Translations under genes and position numbers: made by a program
Shown: in pieces, positions 2,759 to 26,195 of the stretch
Layout: every line of letters starts with the position of its first letter
How positions within the stretch are numbered: the stretch's first letter is position 1
Notes under the pieces: model-generated
Database searches by the model: none
The model's input: the letters and a program-made list of their open reading frames with translations, nothing else
Told to the model about the DNA's origin: nothing
Assembly: GCF_000026545.1 (NCBI RefSeq)
Contig: NC_011601.1
Source: Escherichia coli O127:H6 str. E2348/69
GTDB taxonomy: Bacteria > Pseudomonadota > Gammaproteobacteria > Enterobacterales > Enterobacteriaceae
Length of the DNA: 64,000 bases
Direction: 5' to 3' (one strand)

Positions 2759-3643
2759 TTAGCGAGTAACTTCGACTTTCGCCAGTTTTTCGTAGTAGCA
2801 CGCCAGGGCGCTATGATCCGCCGTTCCTAAACCATCTGCACGCAGTGCCTGCATCATCTCCATAACCGCAGCTGTGAGCGGCAGTTGCGCGCCGACGCCG
2901 TGAGAAGTATCCAGCGCATTCGCCAGATCCTTAATATGCAGATCAATACGGAAGCCCGGTTTGAAGTTGCGGTCCATCACCATCGGCGCTTTGGCATCCA
3001 GCACGGTACTGCCCGCCAGCCCACCGCGAATTGCCTGATACACCAGATCCGGGTTAACGCCCGCTTTGGTTGCCAACGTTAACGCTTCTGACATCGCAGC
3101 AATATTCAGCGCCACAATGACCTGATTTGCCAGTTTGGTGACGTTACCTGCACCGATTTCCCCGGTATGCACCACGGAACCCGCCATCGCTTTCATCAAA
3201 TCATAGTATTTGTCGAAAATAGCCTTGTCGCCGCCCACCATCACTGACAGCGTACCGTCGATGGCTTTCGGTTCACCGCCGCTCACCGGGGCGTCCAGCA
3301 TATCAATGCCTTTCGCTTTCAGCGCTTCGCTGATTTCACGGCTTGCCAGCGGTGCGATAGAACTCATATCAATCAATACCGTACCTGGCTTCGCGCCTTC
3401 AATAATGCCATTCTCACCCAGCGCCACCTCTTTCACATGAGGGGAGTTTGGCAGCATGGTTATGATGACGTCGCACTGTTCAGCGATCGCTTTAGCCGTA
3501 GAGGCTGTTTCTGCACCTGCAGCAATCACGTCAGCGATAGCTTCTGGGTTACGGTCAGCAACCACCAGCGAGTAACCTGCTTTCAAAAGGTTTTTACTCA
3601 TTGGTTTACCCATAATCCCAAGGCCAATAAAACCAACTTTCAT
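2759..3643 (-). CDS. garR: 2-hydroxy-3-oxopropionate (tartronate semialdehyde) reductase (294 aa)
   Basis: Translation MKVGFIGLGIMGKPMSKNLLKAGY with a Rossmann GxGxxG motif; start chosen at the internal Met to give the recalled 294 aa. Confidence 0.88.
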   Translation of the reverse strand: MKVGFIGLGIMGKPMSKNLLKAGYSLVVADRNPEAIADVIAAGAETASTAKAIAEQCDVIITMLPNSPHVKEVALGENGIIEGAKPGTVLIDMSSIAPLASREISEALKAKGIDMLDAPVSGGEPKAIDGTLSVMVGGDKAIFDKYYDLMKAMAGSVVHTGEIGAGNVTKLANQVIVALNIAAMSEALTLATKAGVNPDLVYQAIRGGLAGSTVLDAKAPMVMDRNFKPGFRIDLHIKDLANALDTSHGVGAQLPLTAAVMEMMQALRADGLGTADHSALACYYEKLAKVEVTR

Positions 3644-3678
3644 AGTCATATCAATCATCTCTCTTATTGCGGTGGTGG

Positions 3679-4449
3679 TTATTTTTTAAAGGTATCAGCC
3701 AGTTTCTGAGTGGCAGAGCGGAAGACGCCGAGATCGCTGCCGACGGCCACAAACGTCGCGCCCCATTCCAGATAACGACGCGCATCAGCCTCGACTGGTG
3801 CGAGGATGCCGCTGGGTTTGCCGTGCGCGCTGGCACGGTTAAAAATGTGCTGAATTGCTTTTTGTACATCCGGGTGCGAGGCATTGCCGAGATGGCCTAA
3901 TGCCGCAGCCAGATCGCTGGGGCCGACGAAGATGCCGTCTACACCTTCGGTAGCGGCAATAGCATCGACGTTATCTACGCCCTGCTGACTTTCTATCTGG
4001 ACCAGAATAGTGATGTTCTTGTTCGACTGAGCGAAATAATCCGCCACGGTGCCAAACATATTGGCGCGGTGAGAAACGGAGACGCCGCGAATGCCTTCCG
4101 GTGGGTAACGAGTTGATGCCACCGCCTGCTCTGCTTCCTCTTTTGTTTCTACAAAAGGAATCAGGAAGTTATAGAAACCGATATCCAGAAGACGCTTAAT
4201 AATTACCGGCTCGTTGGTCGGCACTCGCACTACTGGCGCGCTGGCGCTGCCTTTCAGGGCCATTAACTGCGGAATAAACGTGGAGATATCGTTTGGCGCA
4301 TGTTCACCATCCAGCACCAGCCAGTCAAACCCAGCCAAACCAAGAACTTCAGTGCTAATCGGGTTAGAGAGAGCTGACCAGCAACCAATTTGTACCTGTT
4401 TCGCAGCCAGTGCGGCTTTGAATTTATTCGGGAAAACATCGTTATTCAT
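3679..4449 (-). CDS. garL: 5-keto-4-deoxy-D-glucarate (2-dehydro-3-deoxyglucarate) aldolase (256 aa)
   Basis: Translation and length match recalled GarL; position in the garPLRK operon. Confidence 0.92.
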
Positions 4450-4464
4450 CGCTTATACCTTTGC

Positions 4465-5799
4465 TTATTTCTGCAATTCCATACGTTTAATGTCGCCGAC
4501 TACGAAGAGGTAGCAGACCATCGCCATCAGCGCTGAACATCCCACAAAAACCAGTGCTGCATTGAAGGAGTGCAGTTCACTTACCAGGTAGCCAATCACC
4601 AGTGGAGTGACAATGGAGGCAACATTGCCAAAGACGTTAAAGACGCCGCCGCAGAGGCCAACAATCTCTTTCGGCGCGGTGTCAGAAATCACTGGCCAGC
4701 CCAGCGCACCAAATCCTTTGCCAAAGAAAGCCAGCGCCATCAGCATGACCACCAGCGTGGTGTTGTTGGTGTAGTTACATAAGATGATGGTGGAAGCCAG
4801 CAACATTCCCAGCACAATCGGTAGCTTACGTGCCAGGGTCAGGGACAAACCGCGTTTGATCAGATAATCCGAGAAGACACCTCCCAGCACGCCGCCCGCA
4901 AAGCCACACAGTGCCGGAATCGAGGCGACCAGACCCACTTTCAGAATCGACATGCCTTTTTCCTGCACCAGATAAATTGGGAACCAGGTGAGGAAGAACC
5001 AGGTGATGGTGTTGATAAAATATTGTCCGAAAAATACGCCCAGCATCATGCGGTTAGAGAGCAATTGCTTGATGTAATGCAGTTTGGGACCGCTTGCTGC
5101 CGCACTGCCCGGCTTTTTGTGGTCCATATCGACCACCGCGCCATTTTCTGAGATAAACTTCAGCTCTTCCGCAGACATACGTGGGTGATCTGTCGGGTTA
5201 TGAATCAACTTGATCCACAGCGCCGTCAGCACAAAACCAATCACCCCCATAACGGTGAAGACGTGCTCCCAGCCCCAGGCGAAAGTCAGCCAGCCAAGCA
5301 GCGGCGAAAAGAGCGCCAGCGAGAAATATTGCGCCGAGTTAAAGATGGCGGAGGCAGTACCACGTTCTTTCGTCGGGAACCAGGCGGCGACAATACGGGC
5401 GTTCGCCGGGAATGATGGCGCTTCCGAGAATCCCAGCATAAAGCGCATAAAGAACATGGAGATCCCTGCCCAGGCCAGCGGGAACATATCAACAAAGCCT
5501 TGCAGGAAGGTGAACAGCGACCAGAAAAAGAGGCTGTAGGTGTAAACTTTTTTCGAGCCAAACTTATCAAGCAGCCAGCCGCCGGGAATTTGCATCAGCA
5601 GGTAGGCCCAGCCAAAAGCGGAGAAGATGTAACCCATCGAAACCGCACTTAACTGCAACTCTTTTGCCACTTCGGTACCAGCAATAGACAGCGTTGCACG
5701 ATCGGCGTAGTTAACGGCGGTAACAATAAAAATAATCAGTAATATTAAATAGCGGGTATGCACGCCTTTCTTTTTTTCGTCAACGGTGTCCAACATCAT
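4465..5799 (-). CDS. garP: Galactarate/glucarate/glycerate MFS transporter (444 aa)
   Basis: Multi-pass membrane protein translation; length and operon position match GarP. Confidence 0.9.
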   Translation of the reverse strand: MMLDTVDEKKKGVHTRYLILLIIFIVTAVNYADRATLSIAGTEVAKELQLSAVSMGYIFSAFGWAYLLMQIPGGWLLDKFGSKKVYTYSLFFWSLFTFLQGFVDMFPLAWAGISMFFMRFMLGFSEAPSFPANARIVAAWFPTKERGTASAIFNSAQYFSLALFSPLLGWLTFAWGWEHVFTVMGVIGFVLTALWIKLIHNPTDHPRMSAEELKFISENGAVVDMDHKKPGSAAASGPKLHYIKQLLSNRMMLGVFFGQYFINTITWFFLTWFPIYLVQEKGMSILKVGLVASIPALCGFAGGVLGGVFSDYLIKRGLSLTLARKLPIVLGMLLASTIILCNYTNNTTLVVMLMALAFFGKGFGALGWPVISDTAPKEIVGLCGGVFNVFGNVASIVTPLVIGYLVSELHSFNAALVFVGCSALMAMVCYLFVVGDIKRMELQK

Positions 5800-6173
5800 T
5801 TTATTTACCTCGGGTACTTATGCTGATTTTTATTATTATGGGGAAGGTGTTATTTATGAGTTTCATTTATGCCGTTACGACAATGAACTCGGGAATTAGT
5901 ATAAGCAGCGCGATAATAATAATCATTGTGCAAATGCTAATTTAATTAGTACTATTTAAATATTATTTTGAGCATATGCACATAAGGTTGCGCGCTAAAG
6001 CACAGATTTGCGCTTTACCTTGCCGGGCGGCACTGTAATCCCTGAAATGATTGACATTGATCACATTTCTTCATTTAAACTCCTGACATTCTTATTTCAC
6101 CCAATGAAGTTATTTATTTTTAAATGAGACCAGGTCCTCATTTTAATAGTCCCTGGCTGGAGAATATTGCACA
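5800..6173. promoter_or_regulatory. Divergent garP / garD control region (AT-rich, 374 bp)
   Basis: Long AT-rich intergenic region between divergently transcribed garPLRK and garD; individual sites not resolved by eye. Confidence 0.4.
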
Positions 6174-7745
6174 ATGGCCAACATCGAAATCAGACAAGAA
6201 ACGCCAACTGCGTTTTATATAAAAGTTCACGACACAGATAATGTGGCAATTATTGTTAATGATAATGGCCTGAAAGCAGGAACGCGTTTTCCGGATGGGC
6301 TGGAATTAATTGAACATATTCCCCAGGGGCATAAAGTCGCATTGCTGGACATTCCGGCTAATGGTGAAATTATTCGTTATGGCGAGGTGATTGGTTACGC
6401 CGTGCGCGCAATCTCACGCGGAAGCTGGATCGACGAATCAATGGTTGTACTACCGGAAGCGCCGCCGTTACATACGCTGCCACTGGCAACCAAAGTCCCG
6501 GAACCCTTACCGCCGCTGGAAGGATACACCTTTGAGGGCTATCGCAATGCCGATGGCAGCGTGGGCACCAAAAACCTGCTCGGCATCACCACCAGCGTCC
6601 ACTGTGTGGCAGGCGTGGTGGACTACGTAGTAAAAATCATTGAACGCGATCTGCTACCGAAATACCCGAACGTCGATGGCGTGGTGGGGCTGAATCATTT
6701 GTACGGTTGTGGCGTGGCGATTAACGCACCCGCGGCAGTTGTACCTATTCGTACCATTCACAATATTTCGCTGAACCCTAACTTTGGCGGCGAAGTAATG
6801 GTGATTGGTCTGGGTTGTGAAAAGTTGCAGCCTGAACGCCTACTGACTGGAACGGATGATGTGCAAGCTATTCCAGTAGAAAGCGCCAGCATTGTCAGTT
6901 TGCAGGATGAAAAGCATGTCGGTTTTCAGTCCATGGTCGAGGATATTTTGCAGGTCGCCGAACGCCATTTGCACAAGCTGAATCAACGGCAGCGAGAAAC
7001 CTGTCCGGCTTCAGAACTGGTTGTCGGCATGCAGTGCGGTGGCAGCGATGCGTTTTCTGGCGTAACGGCAAACCCGGCGGTTGGGTATGCGTCTGATCTA
7101 TTGGTGCGCTGCGGCGCAACGGTGATGTTCTCAGAAGTCACAGAAGTGCGTGACGCGATCCATCTGCTGACACCACGCGCAGTGAACGAAGAGGTCGGCA
7201 AACGGCTGCTGGAGGAGATGGAGTGGTACGATAACTATCTCAATATGGGAAAAACCGACCGCAGCGCCAACCCTTCGCCGGGGAACAAGAAAGGCGGTCT
7301 GGCAAATGTGGTGGAGAAGGCACTCGGCTCCATTGCTAAATCGGGTAAAAGTGCAATTGTTGAAGTGCTGTCGCCCGGCCAACGCCCGACTAAACGCGGA
7401 TTAATTTACGCCGCGACGCCAGCCAGCGATTTTGTCTGTGGCACGCAACAGGTGGCTTCGGGTATCACCGTGCAAGTGTTTACGACCGGTCGTGGTACGC
7501 CGTACGGCCTGATGGCGGTACCCGTCATTAAAATGGCGACCCGCACCGAGCTGGCGAACCGCTGGTTTGATTTAATGGATATTAACGCGGGCACTATCGC
7601 TACCGGCGAAGAAACCATTGAAGAAGTGGGCTGGAAGTTGTTCCACTTTATTCTCGACGTCGCCAGCGGGAAGAAGAAAACCTTCTCGGATCAATGGGGA
7701 CTGCATAACCAGCTGGCGGTGTTTAACCCGGCACCGGTGACCTGA
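6174..7745 (+). CDS. garD: Galactarate dehydratase (523 aa)
   Basis: Translation and length match recalled GarD. Confidence 0.92.
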
Positions 7746-7760
7746 TAATTCAATTCGTAT

Positions 7761-7791
7761 TATGCCCGATAGCACACGTTTATCGGGCATA
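7761..7791. terminator. Perfect 10-bp inverted repeat (atgcccgata / tatcgggcat, 9-nt loop) between convergent garD and agaR; probable bidirectional terminator
   Basis: Read directly from the sequence; sits in the 51-bp garD-agaR intergenic gap. Confidence 0.5.
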
Positions 7792-7796
7792 TTGAG

Positions 7797-8621
7797 TCAC
7801 AGCGAAGACGCGTGATCCCCGACCAGAATCACTTCAACTCCAGCCTTTCGCAGTCCTTCCAGACTATCCGCAGGAATGCCTTCATCAACAATGATCATGT
7901 CGATACGTTGAGTATCAATGATCTTATGTAAACTGGAACGATTGAACTTACTGGAATCGGTGACCACGATGATCCGTTCCGCAACTTCGCACATCCGACG
8001 GTTTAAACGGGCTTCATCTTCATTATGCGTGCTGACGCCGCGCTCCAGATCGATCGCATCTACACCAAGAAACAGCATATCGAAGTGGTAATTTTGCAGC
8101 GATTGCTCAGCCTGATCACCGTAAAAAGATTGCGACTGACGGCGCAAATGCCCCCCGGTCATCAGCAGCTCAACGCCTTCCGCTTCCAGCAACGCATTAG
8201 CCACGTTCATACCGTTGGTCATCGCAATTACGTCAGTGTGCTTGCGCATCAGACAAGCAATCTCAAAAGTGGTGGTCCCGGAGTCGAGGATCACCCGATG
8301 ACCAGGCTGAATCAACTCAACGGCAGCTTTCGCAACGCTGCGTTTCATCGCGGTGTTCAGCGCGCTTTTATCTTCCACTGATGGCTCGACTGACGGCGTT
8401 GTGCTATCGCAGATCAACGCGCCACCATAGGCACGCACAGCGATCCCCTGCTTTTCCAGAAACGCCAGATCGTTGCGGATCGTCACAGTAGATACACCAT
8501 ACAACGCCGATAGATCATTAACTTGCACACTTCCTTGCTGGCGCAGGCGTTGAATGATCTGCTCTCGTCGCTCACTGGTGCCTGTCACTCGCTTCTCGCC
8601 TGAAGCGTCGGTATTACTCAT
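7797..8621 (-). CDS. agaR: DeoR-family repressor of the aga regulon
   Basis: Translation shows an N-terminal HTH and a DeoR-type C-terminal domain; sits divergent from kbaZ; the ORF is 274 aa and the precise start is uncertain. Confidence 0.88.
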
Positions 8622-8869
8622 AGTAAGTCCTTTCGTAAAACTTTCGTTTCATTTCGTTTTGCCTATTAACGCCTTTCTATTAAGCAAATGCAAGCCCACC
8701 TTACCCATTGGCGCAAGCTACTCTCGTTTCAGTGGCTTTCATTATGTTTCTTTTGTGAATCAGATCAGAAAACTATTATCTTTCGTTTTATTTTTATCTC
8801 ACCATGACGCAGTATCAACTGAAACAAAACGAAAGATTAATATCGCAGTAATCTGAACTGGAGAGGAAA
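8622..8869. promoter_or_regulatory. agaR / kbaZ divergent promoter region with repeated CTTTCGTTT-type motifs (candidate AgaR operators)
   Basis: Motifs seen at about 8631-8662, 8714-8722, 8779-8800 and inverted at 8822-8838; consistent with published AgaR operator repeats. Confidence 0.5.
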
Positions 8870-10150
8870 GTGAAACATCTGACAGAAATGGTGAGACAGC
8901 ACAAAGCGGGCAAAACAAATGGGATTTATGCCGTTTGTTCCGCACATCCGCTGGTGCTGGAAGCTGCAATCCGCTACGCCAGTGCAAACCAAACGCCGTT
9001 ACTGATTGAAGCAACCTCCAATCAGGTGGACCAGTTCGGCGGTTATACCGGAATGACGCCCGCCGATTTTCGCGGCTTTGTTTGTCAGCTCGCCGACTCG
9101 TTGAATTTCCCGCAGGATGCGCTGATTCTGGGTGGTGACCATCTGGGGCCAAACCGCTGGCAAAACCTGCCTGCCGCTCAGGCAATGGCCAATGCCGATG
9201 ATTTGATTAAAAGCTACGTGGCGGCAGGATTCAAAAAAATTCACCTTGATTGCAGCATGTCCTGTCAGGACGATCCGATTCCCTTAACTGATGACATCGT
9301 GGCTGAACGCGCCGCCCGTCTGGCGAAAGTGGCGGAAGAAACCTGTCTTGAACACTTTGGCGAAGCCGATCTGGAGTATGTCATTGGTACCGAAGTGCCG
9401 GTGCCTGGCGGCGCGCATGAAACCTTAAGCGAGCTGGCGGTCACCACGCCGGATGCCGCCCGCGCCACGCTGGAAGCCCATCGTCACGCTTTTGAAAAGC
9501 AGGGTCTGAATGCCATCTGGCCACGCATTATTGCCCTGGTGGTTCAACCCGGCGTCGAATTCGATCACACCAACGTTATTGATTATCAGCCCGCCAAAGC
9601 GACCGCCTTAAGCCAGATGGTCGAAAACTACGAAACGCTGATTTTCGAAGCGCACTCTACCGATTATCAAACACCGCAATCGCTGCGCCAGCTGGTGATT
9701 GACCACTTTGCCATTCTGAAAGTTGGCCCGGCGCTGACCTTTGCTCTGCGTGAAGCTCTGTTCTCTCTGGCGGCGATTGAAGAAGAACTGGTGCCAGCAA
9801 AAGCCTGTTCTGGTCTGCGTCAGGTGCTGGAAAACGTGATGCTCGACCGCCCGGAATACTGGCAAAGCCACTACCACGGTGACGGCAACGCGCGTCGTCT
9901 GGCGCGTGGTTATAGCTACTCGGATCGCGTGCGCTATTACTGGCCGGACAGCCAGATTGATGACGCTTTCGCTCATCTGGTTCGTAATCTGGCGGATTCA
10001 CCAATTCCGCTGCCGCTGATCAGTCAGTATCTGCCGCTGCAGTACGTGAAAGTTCGCTCCGGCGAGCTGCAGCCAACGCCACGGGAACTCATTATCAACC
10101 ATATTCAGGACATCCTGGCGCAGTACCACACAGCCTGTGAAGGCCAATAA
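8870..10150 (+). CDS. kbaZ: Tagatose-6-phosphate kinase-like / tagatose-bisphosphate aldolase non-catalytic subunit (426 aa, GTG start)
   Basis: Translation [27 protein letters not shown]; GGAGAGGA RBS upstream of the GTG. Confidence 0.88.
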
Positions 10151-10172
10151 GCAAAACAAAGAGGAACACGCT

Positions 10173-10646
10173 ATGCCAAATATTGTTTTAAGTCGGATTG
10201 ATGAACGCTTGATTCACGGTCAGGTCGGCGTTCAGTGGGTCGGATTTGCGGGGGCAAATCTGGTGCTGGTAGCCAACGATGAGGTTGCCGAAGATCCGGT
10301 ACAACAAAACCTGATGGAAATGGTACTGGCAGAAGGGATCGCCGTACGTTTCTGGACGCTGCAAAAAGTCATCGACAACATTCATCGCGCCGCCGATCGA
10401 CAGAAAATCCTGCTGGTTTGTAAAACACCGGCCGATTTCCTGACGCTGGTGAAAGGTGGCGTTCCGGTGAATCGCATTAACGTTGGCAATATGCACTACG
10501 CCAATGGCAAGCAACAAATCGCCAAAACGGTTTCTGTGGATGCGGGTGATATCGCAGCATTTAACGACCTGAAAGCCGCTGGGGTGGAATGCTTCGTTCA
10601 GGGCGTCCCGACAGAGCCTGCTGTGGACCTCTTTAAATTACTTTGA
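10173..10646 (+). CDS. agaV: PTS N-acetylgalactosamine-specific IIB component (157 aa)
   Basis: Translation MPNIVLSRIDERLIHGQVG (mannose-family IIB); AGAGGA RBS; the upstream 12-codon extension in the track is rejected. Confidence 0.88.
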   Translation: MPNIVLSRIDERLIHGQVGVQWVGFAGANLVLVANDEVAEDPVQQNLMEMVLAEGIAVRFWTLQKVIDNIHRAADRQKILLVCKTPADFLTLVKGGVPVNRINVGNMHYANGKQQIAKTVSVDAGDIAAFNDLKAAGVECFVQGVPTEPAVDLFKLL

Positions 10647-10656
10647 GGGATTCATC

Positions 10657-11442
10657 ATGGAAATCAGTCTGTTGCAGGCATTTGCGTTGGGCATTATCGC
10701 CTTTATCGCTGGCCTGGATATGTTTAACGGCTTAACCCATATGCACCGCCCGGTGGTCCTCGGCCCGTTGGTCGGACTGGTACTTGGCGATCTGCATACC
10801 GGTATTTTAACCGGCGGTACGCTGGAACTGGTGTGGATGGGGCTGGCCCCGCTGGCAGGCGCACAACCGCCTAACGTGATTATCGGTACTATCGTCGGCA
10901 CGGCGTTTGCCATTACTACTGGCGTGAAACCCGATGTCGCGGTCGGTGTCGCCGTACCTTTCGCTGTCGCAGTACAGATGGGGATTACCTTCCTGTTCTC
11001 GGTGATGTCCGGCGTGATGTCCCGATGCGACCGGATGGCGGAGAACGCCGATACTCGCGGCATTGAACGCGTGAACTATCTGGCACTGCTGGCACTCGGC
11101 ACTTTCTATTTTCTCTGCGCTTTCCTGCCTATCTACTTCGGCGCGGAACATGCAAAAACCATCATTGATGTCCTGCCGCAACGATTAATCGACGGCCTCG
11201 GCGTCGCGGGCGGCATCATGCCAGCAATCGGTTTTGCCGTGCTGCTGAAAATCATGATGAAAAACGTCTACATCCCCTACTTCATCCTGGGCTTTGTTGC
11301 CGCAGCCTGGCTCAAGTTACCGGTGCTGGCTATTGCTGCCGCTGCGCTGGCGATGGCGATGGCGCTCATCGACCTGCTGCGTAAATCTCCTGAACCGACT
11401 CAACCTGCGGCACAGAAAGAGGAATTTGAAGATGGCATCTAA
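10657..11442 (+). CDS. agaW: PTS N-acetylgalactosamine-specific IIC component, full length (261 aa)
   Basis: Polytopic mannose-family IIC translation; uninterrupted frame. Confidence 0.85.
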   Translation: MEISLLQAFALGIIAFIAGLDMFNGLTHMHRPVVLGPLVGLVLGDLHTGILTGGTLELVWMGLAPLAGAQPPNVIIGTIVGTAFAITTGVKPDVAVGVAVPFAVAVQMGITFLFSVMSGVMSRCDRMAENADTRGIERVNYLALLALGTFYFLCAFLPIYFGAEHAKTIIDVLPQRLIDGLGVAGGIMPAIGFAVLLKIMMKNVYIPYFILGFVAAAWLKLPVLAIAAAALAMAMALIDLLRKSPEPTQPAAQKEEFEDGI

Positions 11443-12310
11443 TCAAACCACCCTGCCGAACGTCAGCGAAAATGAAGAAACACTGCTGACTGGCGTCAAT
11501 GAAAACGTGTATGAAGATCAGAGCATTGGCGCGGAGCTGACGAAAAAAGATATCAACCGCGTCGCCTGGCGTTCCATGTTGTTACAGGCTTCTTTCAACT
11601 ACGAACGTATGCAGGCTTCCGGCTGGCTGTACGGCCTGCTGCCAGCACTGAAAAAGATCCACACTAATAAACGCGACCTGGCGCGCGCTATGAAGGGGCA
11701 TATGGGTTTCTTCAATACCCATCCGTTTCTGGTGACGTTTGTTATCGGCATTATCCTTGCGATGGAGCGTTCTAAGCAGGACGTTAACAGTATTCAGAGC
11801 ACCAAAATTGCCGTCGGTGCGCCGCTCGGCGGGATTGGCGATGCGATGTTCTGGCTAACGCTACTGCCGATTTGTGGCGGGATTGGTGCAAGCCTCGCGC
11901 TACAAGGCTCTATTCTTGGCGCTGTCGTCTTTATTGTGCTGTTCAACGTGGTACACCTGGGGCTGCGTTTTGGTCTGGCGCATTATGCTTACCGCATGGG
12001 CGTGGCGGCGATTCCACTCATTAAAGCGAATACCAAAAAAGTCGGCCATGCTGCGTCTATCGTTGGGATGACGGTAATCGGCGCGCTGGTGGCAACCTAT
12101 GTTCGTTTAAGCACCACGCTGGAAATCACAGCGGGCGACGCAGTGGTTAAGTTACAGGCTGATGTTATCGACAAACTGATGCCTGCCTTCTTACCGCTGG
12201 TCTACACCCTGACCATGTTCTGGCTGGTACGCCGCGGCTGGAGTCCGCTGCGCCTGATTGCAGTGACCGTGGTTCTCGGCATCGTCGGTAAATTCTGCCA
12301 TTTCCTTTAA
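11432..12310 (+). CDS. agaE: PTS N-acetylgalactosamine-specific IID component (292 aa)
   Basis: Translation from MASNQTTLPNVSENEE; the ATG overlaps the agaW stop by 11 nt (translational coupling). Confidence 0.85.
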   Translation: MASNQTTLPNVSENEETLLTGVNENVYEDQSIGAELTKKDINRVAWRSMLLQASFNYERMQASGWLYGLLPALKKIHTNKRDLARAMKGHMGFFNTHPFLVTFVIGIILAMERSKQDVNSIQSTKIAVGAPLGGIGDAMFWLTLLPICGGIGASLALQGSILGAVVFIVLFNVVHLGLRFGLAHYAYRMGVAAIPLIKANTKKVGHAASIVGMTVIGALVATYVRLSTTLEITAGDAVVKLQADVIDKLMPAFLPLVYTLTMFWLVRRGWSPLRLIAVTVVLGIVGKFCHFL

Positions 12311-12327
12311 ATACAATGAGGTATTAG

Positions 12328-12762
12328 ATGTTAAGTATTATTTTGACAGGGCATGGCGGATTTGCCAGCGGCATGGAAAAAGCAATGAAGCAAATTCTCG
12401 GTGAGCAATCGCAGTTTATCGCCATCGATTTTCCGGAAACCTCAAGCACCGCGCTGCTTACATCGCAGCTTGAAGAGGCCATCGTCCAACTGGATTGTGA
12501 AGACGGCATTGTTTTTCTGACGGATTTGCTGGGCGGCACGCCGTTTCGCGTAGCTTCAACGCTGGCGATGCAAAAACCGGGCTGTGAAGTGATCACAGGG
12601 ACCAATTTACAACTGCTACTGGAGATGGTGCTGGAACGCGAAGGGTTAAGCGGTGAAGAGTTTCGTGTGCAGGCGCTGGAGTGTGGACACCGTGGGCTAA
12701 CCAGTCTGGTGGACGAACTTGGTCGCTGCCATGAGGAATGTCCGGTCGAGGAAGGAATATGA
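12328..12762 (+). CDS. agaF: PTS IIA component of the aga system (144 aa)
   Basis: Mannose-family IIA translation (MLSIILTGHGGFASG). Confidence 0.85.
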   Translation: MLSIILTGHGGFASGMEKAMKQILGEQSQFIAIDFPETSSTALLTSQLEEAIVQLDCEDGIVFLTDLLGGTPFRVASTLAMQKPGCEVITGTNLQLLLEMVLEREGLSGEEFRVQALECGHRGLTSLVDELGRCHEECPVEEGI

Positions 12763-13892
12763 CACACGTTCTGCGCGCCAGAAGGCTGCTGACTGAAGAG
12801 GGATGGTTCGATAACCATCAGTTGCGTATTGCTGACGGTGTAATCGCAGCAATCGAACCGATTCCAGTGGGCGTGACTGAACGCGATGCGGAACTGCTCT
12901 GCCCCGCTTACATCGACACCCATGTACACGGTGGTGCGGGCGTTGATGTAATGGATGACGCGCCGGATGCGCTCGACAAGCTGGCAATGCACAAAGCACG
13001 CGAAGGTGTCGGCAGTTGGTTACCGACCACCGTAACCGCGCCGCTTAATACCATTCATGCGGCGCTGGAACGTATTGCTCAACGTTGCCAACGCGGCGGA
13101 CCTGGTGCTCAAATACTGGGGAGTTATCTCGAAGGACCGTACTTCACGCCGCAGAATAAAGGCGCGCATCCGCCGGAGCTGTTTCGCGAGCTGGAAATTG
13201 CCGAGCTGGATCAATTGATTGCCGTTTCTCAGCACACCTTGCGCGTGGTGGCGCTGGCACCGGAAAAAGAAGGGGCATTGCAGGCCATCCGCCATCTTAA
13301 ACAGCAAAACGTAAGGGTGATGCTGGGGCATAGCGCGGCGACCTGGCAACAAACCCGCGCCGCGTTTGATGCTGGTGCCGACGGCCTGGTGCATTGCTAT
13401 AACGGGATGACAGGTTTACATCACCGCGAACCGGGAATGGTTGGCGCGGGATTAACGGACAAGCGCGCCTGGCTGGAACTGATAGCCGATGGTCATCATG
13501 TGCATCCGGCGGCGATGTCGCTGTGTTGTTGCTGTGCGAAAGAGAGAATCGTGCTGATCACCGACGCGATGCAGGCAGCCGGGATGCCGGATGGTCGCTA
13601 TACGTTATGTGGCGAAGAAGTGCAGATGCACGGTGGCGTTGTCCGTACCGCGTCCGGTGGGCTGGCGGGCAGTACGCTGTCTGTCGATGCGGCAGTGCGC
13701 AACATGGTCGAGTTGACGGGCGTAACGCCTGCGGAAGCCATCCATATGGCGTCGCTGCATCCGGCGCGTATGCTGGGTGTTGATGATGTTCTGGGATCGC
13801 TTAAACCGGGCAAACGCGCCAGCGTCGTTGCGCTGGATAGCGGGCTGCATGTGCAACAAATCTGGATTCAGGGTCAATTAGCTTCGTTTTGA
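12759..13892 (+). CDS. agaA: N-acetylgalactosamine-6-phosphate deacetylase, full length (377 aa)
   Basis: Translation from MTHVLRARRLLTEEGW, NagA-like amidohydrolase; ATGA overlap with the agaF stop. Confidence 0.85.
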   Translation: MTHVLRARRLLTEEGWFDNHQLRIADGVIAAIEPIPVGVTERDAELLCPAYIDTHVHGGAGVDVMDDAPDALDKLAMHKAREGVGSWLPTTVTAPLNTIHAALERIAQRCQRGGPGAQILGSYLEGPYFTPQNKGAHPPELFRELEIAELDQLIAVSQHTLRVVALAPEKEGALQAIRHLKQQNVRVMLGHSAATWQQTRAAFDAGADGLVHCYNGMTGLHHREPGMVGAGLTDKRAWLELIADGHHVHPAAMSLCCCCAKERIVLITDAMQAAGMPDGRYTLCGEEVQMHGGVVRTASGGLAGSTLSVDAAVRNMVELTGVTPAEAIHMASLHPARMLGVDDVLGSLKPGKRASVVALDSGLHVQQIWIQGQLASF

Positions 13893-14039
13893 TGGTTTGC
13901 TCCTTTATTGGGCCTTCACTTCCCCCGTAAGACCTTTCTTTTTCTTTCGTTGTGCTCTGTGCAGGGTATCGGATGCGACGCTGACGCGTCTTCTTTGACC
14001 TACGGTACGCCGCATCCGGCAATCGGTGCACATAGCGAC

Positions 14040-18534: not shown

Positions 18535-19302
18535 ATGGAACGAGGCACTGCGTCTGGTGGTGCCTCTTTACTAAAGGAATTTCATCCTGTGCAACCCCTT
18601 CAACAAGTTGAAAACTATACGGCGTTAAGTGAACGTGCCAGCGAATATTTATTGGCCGTGATCCGTAGCAAACCGGATGCCGTGATTTGCCTGGCGACCG
18701 GAGCCACGCCATTACTGACGTATCATTATCTGGTAGAAAAAATCCAGCAGCAGCAGGTTGATGTCAGCCAGCTCACCTTCGTCAAGCTCGACGAATGGGT
18801 GGATCTGCCATTAACGATGCCTGGTACCTGCGAAACTTTCCTTCAACAGCATATCGTGCAGCCGCTGGGGCTACGTGAAGACCAGCTCATCAGCTTTCAC
18901 TCCGAAGAGATAAATGAGACAGAGTGCGAACGGGTAACGAACCTGATTGCGCGCAAAGGCGGTCTGGATTTATGCGTTCTCGGATTGGGGAAAAACGGTC
19001 ATCTTGGGCTGAACGAACCGGGAGAAATCCTGCAACCGGCCTGCCATATCAGTCAACTTGATGCCAGAACACAGCAACATGAGATGTTAAAAACCGCGGA
19101 CCGTCCCGTGACTCGTGGGATCACCTTAGGCCTGAAGGATATTCTCAATGCCAGCGAAGTTTTGTTACTGGTGACTGGCGAAGGAAAACAGGATGCGACA
19201 GAACGTTTTCTCACGGCTAAAGTCTCCACCGCTATCCCGGCTTCATTTTTATGGCTGCATAACTATTTCACATGCATGATTGATGAAATGTGTCGTCGTT
19301 AA
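18535..19302 (+). CDS. agaI: Putative galactosamine-6-phosphate deaminase/isomerase, NagB-like (255 aa)
   Basis: NagB/6-phosphogluconolactonase-like translation; ATG directly abuts the agaD stop. Confidence 0.85.
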   Translation: MERGTASGGASLLKEFHPVQPLQQVENYTALSERASEYLLAVIRSKPDAVICLATGATPLLTYHYLVEKIQQQQVDVSQLTFVKLDEWVDLPLTMPGTCETFLQQHIVQPLGLREDQLISFHSEEINETECERVTNLIARKGGLDLCVLGLGKNGHLGLNEPGEILQPACHISQLDARTQQHEMLKTADRPVTRGITLGLKDILNASEVLLLVTGEGKQDATERFLTAKVSTAIPASFLWLHNYFTCMIDEMCRR

Positions 19303-19351
19303 CTCGCCAGGTAAAGGTGTTGTAGCGCTATTCCTGCTGCGACGCCTGTAA

Positions 19352-20215
19352 TCACTCTCCCTGCTGCTCCAGCGCATACTTATACAGCGCATTTTTCTTC
19401 ACGCCGTGAATTTCTGCGGCCAGCGCTGCCGCTTTTTTCAGCGGCAGTTCTGCCTGTAGCAGCGCCAGCGTGCGCAGGGCATCAGCAGGCAGGTCATCTT
19501 CCTGCGCTTTATGGCCTTCGACAATCAGCACCATTTCGCCTTTGCGACGGTTTTCATCTTCTTTTACCCACGCCAGCAGCTCGCCAACGGACGCGCCGTG
19601 AATGGTTTCCCAGGTTTTGGTTAGCTCACGCGCCAGAACCACGTAACGGGATTCGCCTAATACCGCAACGATATCTTCCAGGCTATCTAACAGACGGTGG
19701 GTAGATTCATAAAAAATCAGCGTGCGCGGCTCCGCTTCAATAGCTTTTAGCGCATCACGGCGGCCTTTTGATTTGGCAGGTAAAAAGCCTTCATAACAAA
19801 AACGATCGGATGGTAAACCCGCGGCGCTTAACGCAGTGATAGCAGCACACGGCCCTGGTAGCGGCACCACGCGAATCCCCGCTTCACGACAGGTACGCAC
19901 CAGATGGTAGCCAGGATCGTTAATTAGCGGCGTTCCGGCATCGGAAACCAGCGCAATGTTTTGCCCCTCTTGCAGCTTCGCCAGCAGCGTTTCGGCTTTT
20001 TGTTGTTCGTTATGGTCGTGCAGCGCAAACAACCGGGCATTAATCCCAAAATGTTGCAGCAATAAACCGGTGTGACGCGTATCCTCGGCGGCAATCAGAT
20101 CAACGGCCTGTAATACCTCTAATGCACGCTGGGTGATATCCGCCAGATTGCCGATTGGCGTCGGTACAATGTAAAGCTGCCCCTGAGAATTATCCGCCGA
20201 TTGGTGTTGTTTCAT
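19352..20215 (-). CDS. rsmI: 16S rRNA C1402 2'-O-methyltransferase
   Basis: Translation and length (287 aa) match recalled RsmI (YraL). Confidence 0.9.
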
Positions 20216-25095: not shown

Positions 25096-25731
<636 letters not shown>

Positions 25732-25772
25732 ATTGCCTCCCCCCGGTATGTGTACTCATGTTTAACTATAGG

Positions 25773-26195
25773 TTACCGTTGCCAGACCAGTTTTTTACCA
25801 AAGCCCAGCGTGTTGTCGGTGAATTTGATTTCATCGAGCCGGATTTCCCATACCGGGGCCGACAGCATTCTGGCAACCGGAAAGCGACGATTGTACGCCT
25901 TGCGTGCGAGGTCGCTTTCCTCGCCTTCCAGTCTGCGGATCTCACCTTTAAACTGCACGCCGCGAATTAACGCTACCGTTTTCGGCTGACCGTTTACCGT
26001 TCCGGCAATTGCCGCCTGCGGCCCGCTCATCTGCGCATGACGCGTTTTTTCTTCCGTCAAAATGTAGAAGGCGACTTTCTGCGCATCAAAAAGATAAAAA
26101 GCATTGGCGCACCACAGTTCCCCTTCCTGCTGCACACACCAGGTGACAACATGTTGTTTTGCCAGCCAACGGCTGATGGCGGTGAGTGTTTCCAT
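25773..26195 (-). CDS. yhbP: UPF0306 family protein YhbP (140 aa here)
   Basis: Translation [28 protein letters not shown]; may be slightly shorter than the K-12 protein (unverified). Confidence 0.8.

Follow-up and report, generated by a model that had tools for sequence, protein, structure and literature searches.

We analyzed a window of 64,000 nucleotides from Escherichia coli O127:H6 str. E2348/69 (NC_011601.1), in which agaI and rsmI converge on each other across a gap of only 49 bp (positions 19303–19351; Table 1). The agaI reading frame closes with a TAA codon at 19300–19302, and rsmI, on the minus strand, with a TGA codon at 19352–19354. The initial annotation had put the ends of the two genes at 19302 and 19352 with a 49-bp convergent gap between them, which agrees with both the ORF stops and the RefSeq annotation. 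A 2.1-kb query spanning the junction was 100% identical to E. coli E2348/69, where the RefSeq genes and gap match ours. Both genes were assigned with NCBIfam equivalog models (NF007291 and NF011570), and models of the same kind also confirmed agaC and agaD, which adjoin agaI.

Table 1. Features at the agaI-rsmI junction of E. coli E2348/69 (positions are those of the window).
Feature	Position	Strand	Evidence
agaI, galactosamine-6-phosphate isomerase, 255 aa / 768 nt	18535..19302	+	ORF; NCBIfam NF007291, 465 bits; RefSeq E2348/69; tail comparison
Allele-specific 99-bp segment (agaI tail, spacer, last codon and stop of rsmI)	19260..19358	.	Local alignments to K-12
Convergent intergenic spacer, 49 bp, unoccupied yra site	19303..19351	.	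ORFs; RefSeq; same gap in SMS-3-5, 042 and E. albertii
Hairpin, 16-bp stem, 7-nt loop, without U-tract	19312..19350	+	MFE −20.3 kcal/mol, z −2.45; conserved
rsmI, 16S rRNA C1402 2'-O-methyltransferase, 287 aa / 864 nt	19352..20215	-	ORF; NCBIfam NF011570, 627 bits; C-terminus comparison

In K-12, by comparison, the annotation of strain BW25113 places the four genes yraH, yraI, yraJ and yraK between agaI and rsmI. The statement in the initial annotation that a fimbrial operon of about 6 kb occupies this site in K-12 is thus upheld, with a size of about 5.5 kb, and agaI and rsmI are separated there by yraHIJK rather than adjacent, the alternative that it had allowed for. The yraHIJK operon is one of 12 chaperone-usher operons in K-12 and belongs to type gamma1 (PMC8174762; PMC3032704). 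E2348/69 has the same chromosomal site in its unoccupied form, and its 64-kb window is without homology to Yra at either the DNA or the protein level.

Local alignments showed that homology between the window and K-12 breaks off at 19259 and restarts at 19359, such that 99 bp in the window (19260–19358) stand against 5,484 bp in K-12. The flanks are approximately 98% identical to K-12 right up to these sharp breakpoints (19259/19260 and 19358/19359), with no gradual rise in divergence towards the junction. The two alleles also differ in the last 43 bp of agaI and in the last codon and stop of rsmI. Because the breakpoints fall just inside agaI and rsmI, the ends of both proteins are altered: AgaI ends in LWLHNYFTCMIDEMCRR in the window (255 aa) and in LWLHSNFICLINT in K-12 (251 aa), while RsmI ends in EQQGE (287 aa) and EQQG (286 aa), respectively. 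The AgaI tail LWLHNYFTCMIDEMCRR is found in the empty allele only. According to its annotation, the K-12 segment contains the four fimbrial genes only. Its GC content is 29% in the 500 bp of the 5' regulatory region and 44–50% in the genes, compared with 51–57% in the flanks. No direct repeats are present at the ends of the K-12 segment, and the best end-to-end match is an 8-nt inverted word.

We searched the window for traces of the operon. At 49 bp, the interval between agaI and rsmI contains no usher gene (PapC_N/Usher/PapC_C), and YraJ gave 0 tblastn matches anywhere in the window. Tblastn searches with YraH, YraI and YraK for a PapD chaperone, fimbrial subunits or pseudogene remnants were equally without a match in the 64 kb, as were blastn searches with both Yra-type islands (the second type is described below). 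No meaningful repeats were found around the junction, and it carries none of the marks of a mobile island or excision scar (direct repeats, an integrase or transposase, a tRNA anchor). The spacer is also single-copy within the 64-kb window and lacks an Rfam match, and in this respect does not resemble the multicopy REP/BIME palindromes. All of these searches bear out the earlier statement that remnants, repeats and scars of mobile elements are lacking here.

The spacer contains a hairpin for which a consensus structure of −25.95 kcal/mol, with 16 pairs and one compensatory pair, was obtained from six Escherichia sequences. When it was examined as an intrinsic terminator, a G+C-rich stem-loop was found at 19312–19350, and no U-run was found 3' of the stem, where the plus strand reads TGTAATCAC. 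A promoter and terminator scan returned nothing within 19303–19351, and an Rfam scan of 19150–19500 gave no match at E ≤ 10. The hairpin probably acts as a stem-loop at the 3' end, or as a weak terminator, of the converging agaI and rsmI transcripts alike. The K-12 terminator hairpin between yraK and rsmI shares the words GCGTTGC/GCAACGC with the hairpin of the empty allele. We did not take this as a sign of homology: since each hairpin is palindromic, the shared words count as a single 7-mer match, for which the chance expectation is roughly 0.1.

The distribution of the two states was surveyed in 5,426 complete E. coli genomes. The contiguous agaI-rsmI junction was found in 1,835 of them, about a third, and the yra segment in 3,523, in every case at least 95% identical to K-12 and in some interrupted by insertion sequences (IS). 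In two genomes this site is occupied by a yra-like operon of a highly divergent kind, and by subtraction about 66 fall into neither class. Among named strains, the site is empty in E2348/69, SMS-3-5 and 042, the latter two having the same layout as the window (768-nt agaI, 49-bp gap, 864-nt rsmI), and it is occupied in K-12, HS, LY180, O111:H8 and O157:H7. We take E2348/69 to belong to phylogroup B2, SMS-3-5 to F, 042 to D, K-12 and HS to A, LY180 and O111:H8 to B1, and O157:H7 to E. The resulting pattern, in which B2, D and F lack yra and A, B1 and E carry it, is drawn from this handful of named strains and not from all 5,426 genomes. It agrees with published phylogroup-linked fimbrial differences, according to which Yra was gained by the E/B1/A lineage, a gain obtained by reconstruction in one of these studies (PMC6896753), while Sfm and Ycb were lost in G/B2 (PMC6896753; PMC11565901; PMC4128348).

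The two divergent operons, in strains 18KM2445 (NZ_CP151004.1, operon locus 2900–8976) and MEW (NZ_CM192120.1), represent a second Yra type at the agaI-rsmI site. Their usher shares 57% identity with K-12 YraJ and 84% with the usher of Escherichia sp. MOD1-EC7003, and the operon is preceded by a 1-kb upstream region. Both genomes are true E. coli, with an RsmI protein identical to that of K-12.

Several yra-carrying strains have an operon that is no longer intact. IS1203 interrupts it in O157:H7 strains and IS1 or IS3 in others, and some copies are partly deleted, which suggests that the cryptic yra operon decays frequently. Strain EC25 (NZ_CP035123.1) matches agaI and only 167 bp at the start of the yra segment, with the rsmI side of the query unmatched, which suggests a larger deletion or rearrangement that takes out rsmI.

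Other members of the genus were reached through an AgaI scan of one genome per species, which yielded six loci; E. fergusonii, E. marmotae, E. ruysiae and clade I are not among them. Empty junctions homologous to the 99 bp of the window occur in E. albertii (89% identity), Escherichia sp. E1V33 (92%) and 'E. coli' E69 (84%), and the gap in E. albertii is likewise 49 bp. The divergence of these junctions roughly tracks that of their flanks, from which it follows that they are copies of a single allele dating back at least to the origin of the genus. Occupied junctions are found in E. whittamii, where yra lies at the same position and is 84% identical to K-12, and in Escherichia sp. MOD1-EC7003, where a four-gene operon of the same layout shares 54–64% protein identity with K-12. 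Compared with K-12, synonymous divergence (dS) in E. whittamii is 0.43–0.55 in the flanks and 0.67–0.88 in the yra genes; in MOD1-EC7003 it is 0.47–0.79 in the flanks and saturated in the yra genes. Since dS in yra is at least as high as in the flanks, the occupied alleles must also be old. Neither allele is younger than the genus. In all occupied alleles (K-12, E. whittamii and MOD1-EC7003) RsmI is 286 aa long and the agaI tail AT-rich; in all empty alleles RsmI is 287 aa long and AgaI has the tail DEMCRR. The rsmI gene tree is discordant with the accepted species tree, with E. whittamii and MOD1-EC7003 farther from E. coli than E. albertii is. This indicates that the tree has been affected by recombination, which weakens outgroup reasoning at a single locus.

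Outside Escherichia, the closest relatives of the YraJ usher share 55–70% identity with it. Five of the six that were looked up lie in a fimbrial-chaperone-usher-fimbrial operon adjoining rsmI-lpoA-yraN-diaA-dolP. A Citrobacter murliniae-type contig, Klebsiella oxytoca and a further genome have the operon directly convergent on rsmI. In Salmonella enterica subsp. salamae operon and rsmI are separated by two genes, and in a metagenome scaffold, whose rsmI is 83% identical to that of E. coli, the operon converges on rsmI and has agaI on its other side. The sixth usher, from Citrobacter braakii, is encoded at a different locus. The left neighbours of the rsmI-adjacent operons vary, being the gat cluster, the aga cluster or other genes. 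Junctions that lack fimbrial genes were also found: rsmI converges with garD in a Siccibacter-type and one other enterobacterial contig, and with agaI in Trabulsiella, where only a REP-like palindrome (GCCGGATAAGGCG) lies between the two genes. The usher tree is discordant with the species tree. In it the type of K-12 and E. whittamii is sister to the C. murliniae type, and the type of MOD1-EC7003 and 18KM2445 stands on a separate branch; each of the two Escherichia types has its nearer relatives among the ushers of other genera rather than in the other Escherichia type, which shows horizontal movement.

The gene ends were also compared across genera. All AgaI tails are homologous up to the motif TC[LM]x[DN], and past it neither Escherichia allele class resembles the tails of Trabulsiella or of contig L021 from another member of the Enterobacteriaceae. 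The RsmI C-terminus was tried as a marker of polarity and discarded: QQGE, with which RsmI of the empty allele ends, is widespread in other genera and present even in the Yra-bearing Citrobacter contig, and the K-12-type end TTACCCCTG is found in Trabulsiella and K. oxytoca as well.

The reading that we prefer, with a probability of about 0.75, is that the spacer is the unoccupied allele of the yraHIJK site and was inherited as such by E2348/69, with no deletion in this strain or in B2, and that the occupied state is derived within E. coli (A/B1/E), likely via recombination in the flanks. The initial annotation had left the choice between insertion in K-12 and deletion in E2348/69 to an alignment across phylogroups; for E. 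coli, the empty junction appears to be the older common state (B2, D, F, E. albertii and other Escherichia lineages) and yra the derived one (A/B1/E). The ancestor of A/B1/E would have received a segment made up of a diverged agaI tail, yraHIJK, the terminator hairpin and the rsmI stop. Homologous recombination in the flanking agaI and rsmI with DNA of another, yra-carrying Escherichia lineage would most likely account for this transfer. We infer this route because the junction is without a mobile-element signature. The allele-specific gene ends, together with the second Yra type in true E. coli with a K-12-identical RsmI, also point to flanking recombination, and the yra genes of E. whittamii at the same junction support an exchange at this site. 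In the empty allele, the spacer would merely separate the converging genes, and its hairpin would probably mark or stabilise their 3' ends.

An alternative reading places the loss within E. coli: the ancestor would have had the order agaI-yraHIJK-rsmI, and the operon would have been deleted towards B2, D and F, or one deletion allele would have spread, so that the window would show a genuine deletion compared with the ancestral E. coli. Several observations speak for such an ancestor: the occupied allele is old, as yra synonymous divergence between K-12 and E. whittamii is no lower than that of the flanks; the occupied sites of E. whittamii and MOD1-EC7003 share the K-12 junction type; and Yra-type operons lie beside rsmI in at least four lineages outside Escherichia, in one with agaI on the left. 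We nevertheless regard it as improbable, since B2, D, F, E. albertii, E1V33 and E69 have in common a single homologous empty allele whose divergence tracks the flanks; an allele that predates E. coli cannot have arisen through several losses within it. The lack of any yra remnant in the window and the gain in the E/B1/A lineage inferred in the published reconstruction (PMC6896753) count against it as well. That the operon is missing through a collapsed or misjoined assembly can practically be dismissed, with the contiguous junction present in 1,835 independent complete genomes, including SMS-3-5 and 042.

The preferred reading, in which E2348/69 inherited an empty site older than E. coli, leaves room for different histories at the level of the family. 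The linkage of Yra and rsmI is likely older than Escherichia, to judge from its phylogenetic spread, and the operons beside rsmI in Citrobacter, K. oxytoca, S. enterica subsp. salamae and E. whittamii mean that an ancient deletion may lie at the origin of the empty allele. Conversely, the empty state could be primitive for the whole family, with the rsmI-adjacent Yra-type operons being later insertions or transfers into a favoured site downstream of rsmI and the empty allele never having been filled. The convergent rsmI-garD pairs of the Siccibacter-type and the other enterobacterial contig, the rsmI-agaI pair of Trabulsiella with its REP-like element, and the horizontal movement evident from the mismatch between usher and species trees are all in keeping with this view. 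It is nonetheless rather doubtful, in that five of six sampled Yra-family ushers outside E. coli adjoin rsmI, though with different left neighbours, and an old linkage followed by losses is a more parsimonious account than several independent insertions at one spot in the absence of any site-specific machinery.

As a tentative generalisation, the position downstream of rsmI might be viewed as a long-lived, multi-allelic fimbrial 'slot' across the Enterobacteriaceae, filled with divergent Yra-type cassettes or empty, kept across species and swapped by flanking recombination, perhaps with diversifying or balancing selection acting on surface structures. Escherichia alone holds at least two Yra cassette types, with the 57% usher identity noted above. 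O-antigen clusters are cassette-like loci that are exchanged by homologous recombination in conserved flanking genes. The present site resembles them in its conserved flanks (rsmI, and opposite it agaI or gatR) and in its alternative, deeply divergent contents, with no integrase, IS or direct repeats; unlike at O-antigen loci, one common allele of the agaI-rsmI site is simply empty, and exchange by flanking recombination is here a proposed rather than an established process.

The absence of yra from E2348/69 is a real and ordinary gene-content polymorphism. The lack of the cryptic Yra fimbriae in B2 strains and their gain by the A/B1/E lineage have already been reported (PMC6896753; PMC11565901), and the multi-allelic slot beside rsmI is the sole mildly new aspect. 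In the passages concerned, the earlier studies (PMC6896753; PMC11565901; PMC4128348) give presence and absence; added here are the reading that E2348/69 itself underwent no deletion, the exact anatomy of the junction including the altered AgaI and RsmI ends, the E. albertii junction, and the rsmI-adjacent Yra operons of several other genera. The latter offer useful background for studies of how fimbrial repertoires evolve, or for use of the locus as a phylogroup marker.

The window differs from other strains at neighbouring loci as well. The gene yhbO, encoding a deglycase of the DJ-1/PfpI family, is absent at 25741–25776, between yraR (25096–25731) and yhbP (25773–26195), where 36 bp in the window correspond to 641 bp of K-12 (the yraR-yhbO spacer and yhbO). 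E. albertii has a homologous yhbO-less junction, and yhbO is present in SMS-3-5, 042 and K-12. Out of 5,424 matching E. coli genomes, at most about 100 match the yhbO-less junction at 99% or more. The prlF-yhaV toxin-antitoxin pair, which lies between garD and agaR in SMS-3-5 and 042 and also in K-12, is absent from E2348/69, where garD and agaR are 50 bp apart (window about 7746–7796, converted from record positions 621258–621308). The aga/gam cluster is complete in E2348/69, with agaV, agaW, agaE, agaF and nagA/agaA annotated as intact (window about 9000–14000; record 615162–620184), and a deletion in the corresponding part of the cluster is known from K-12.
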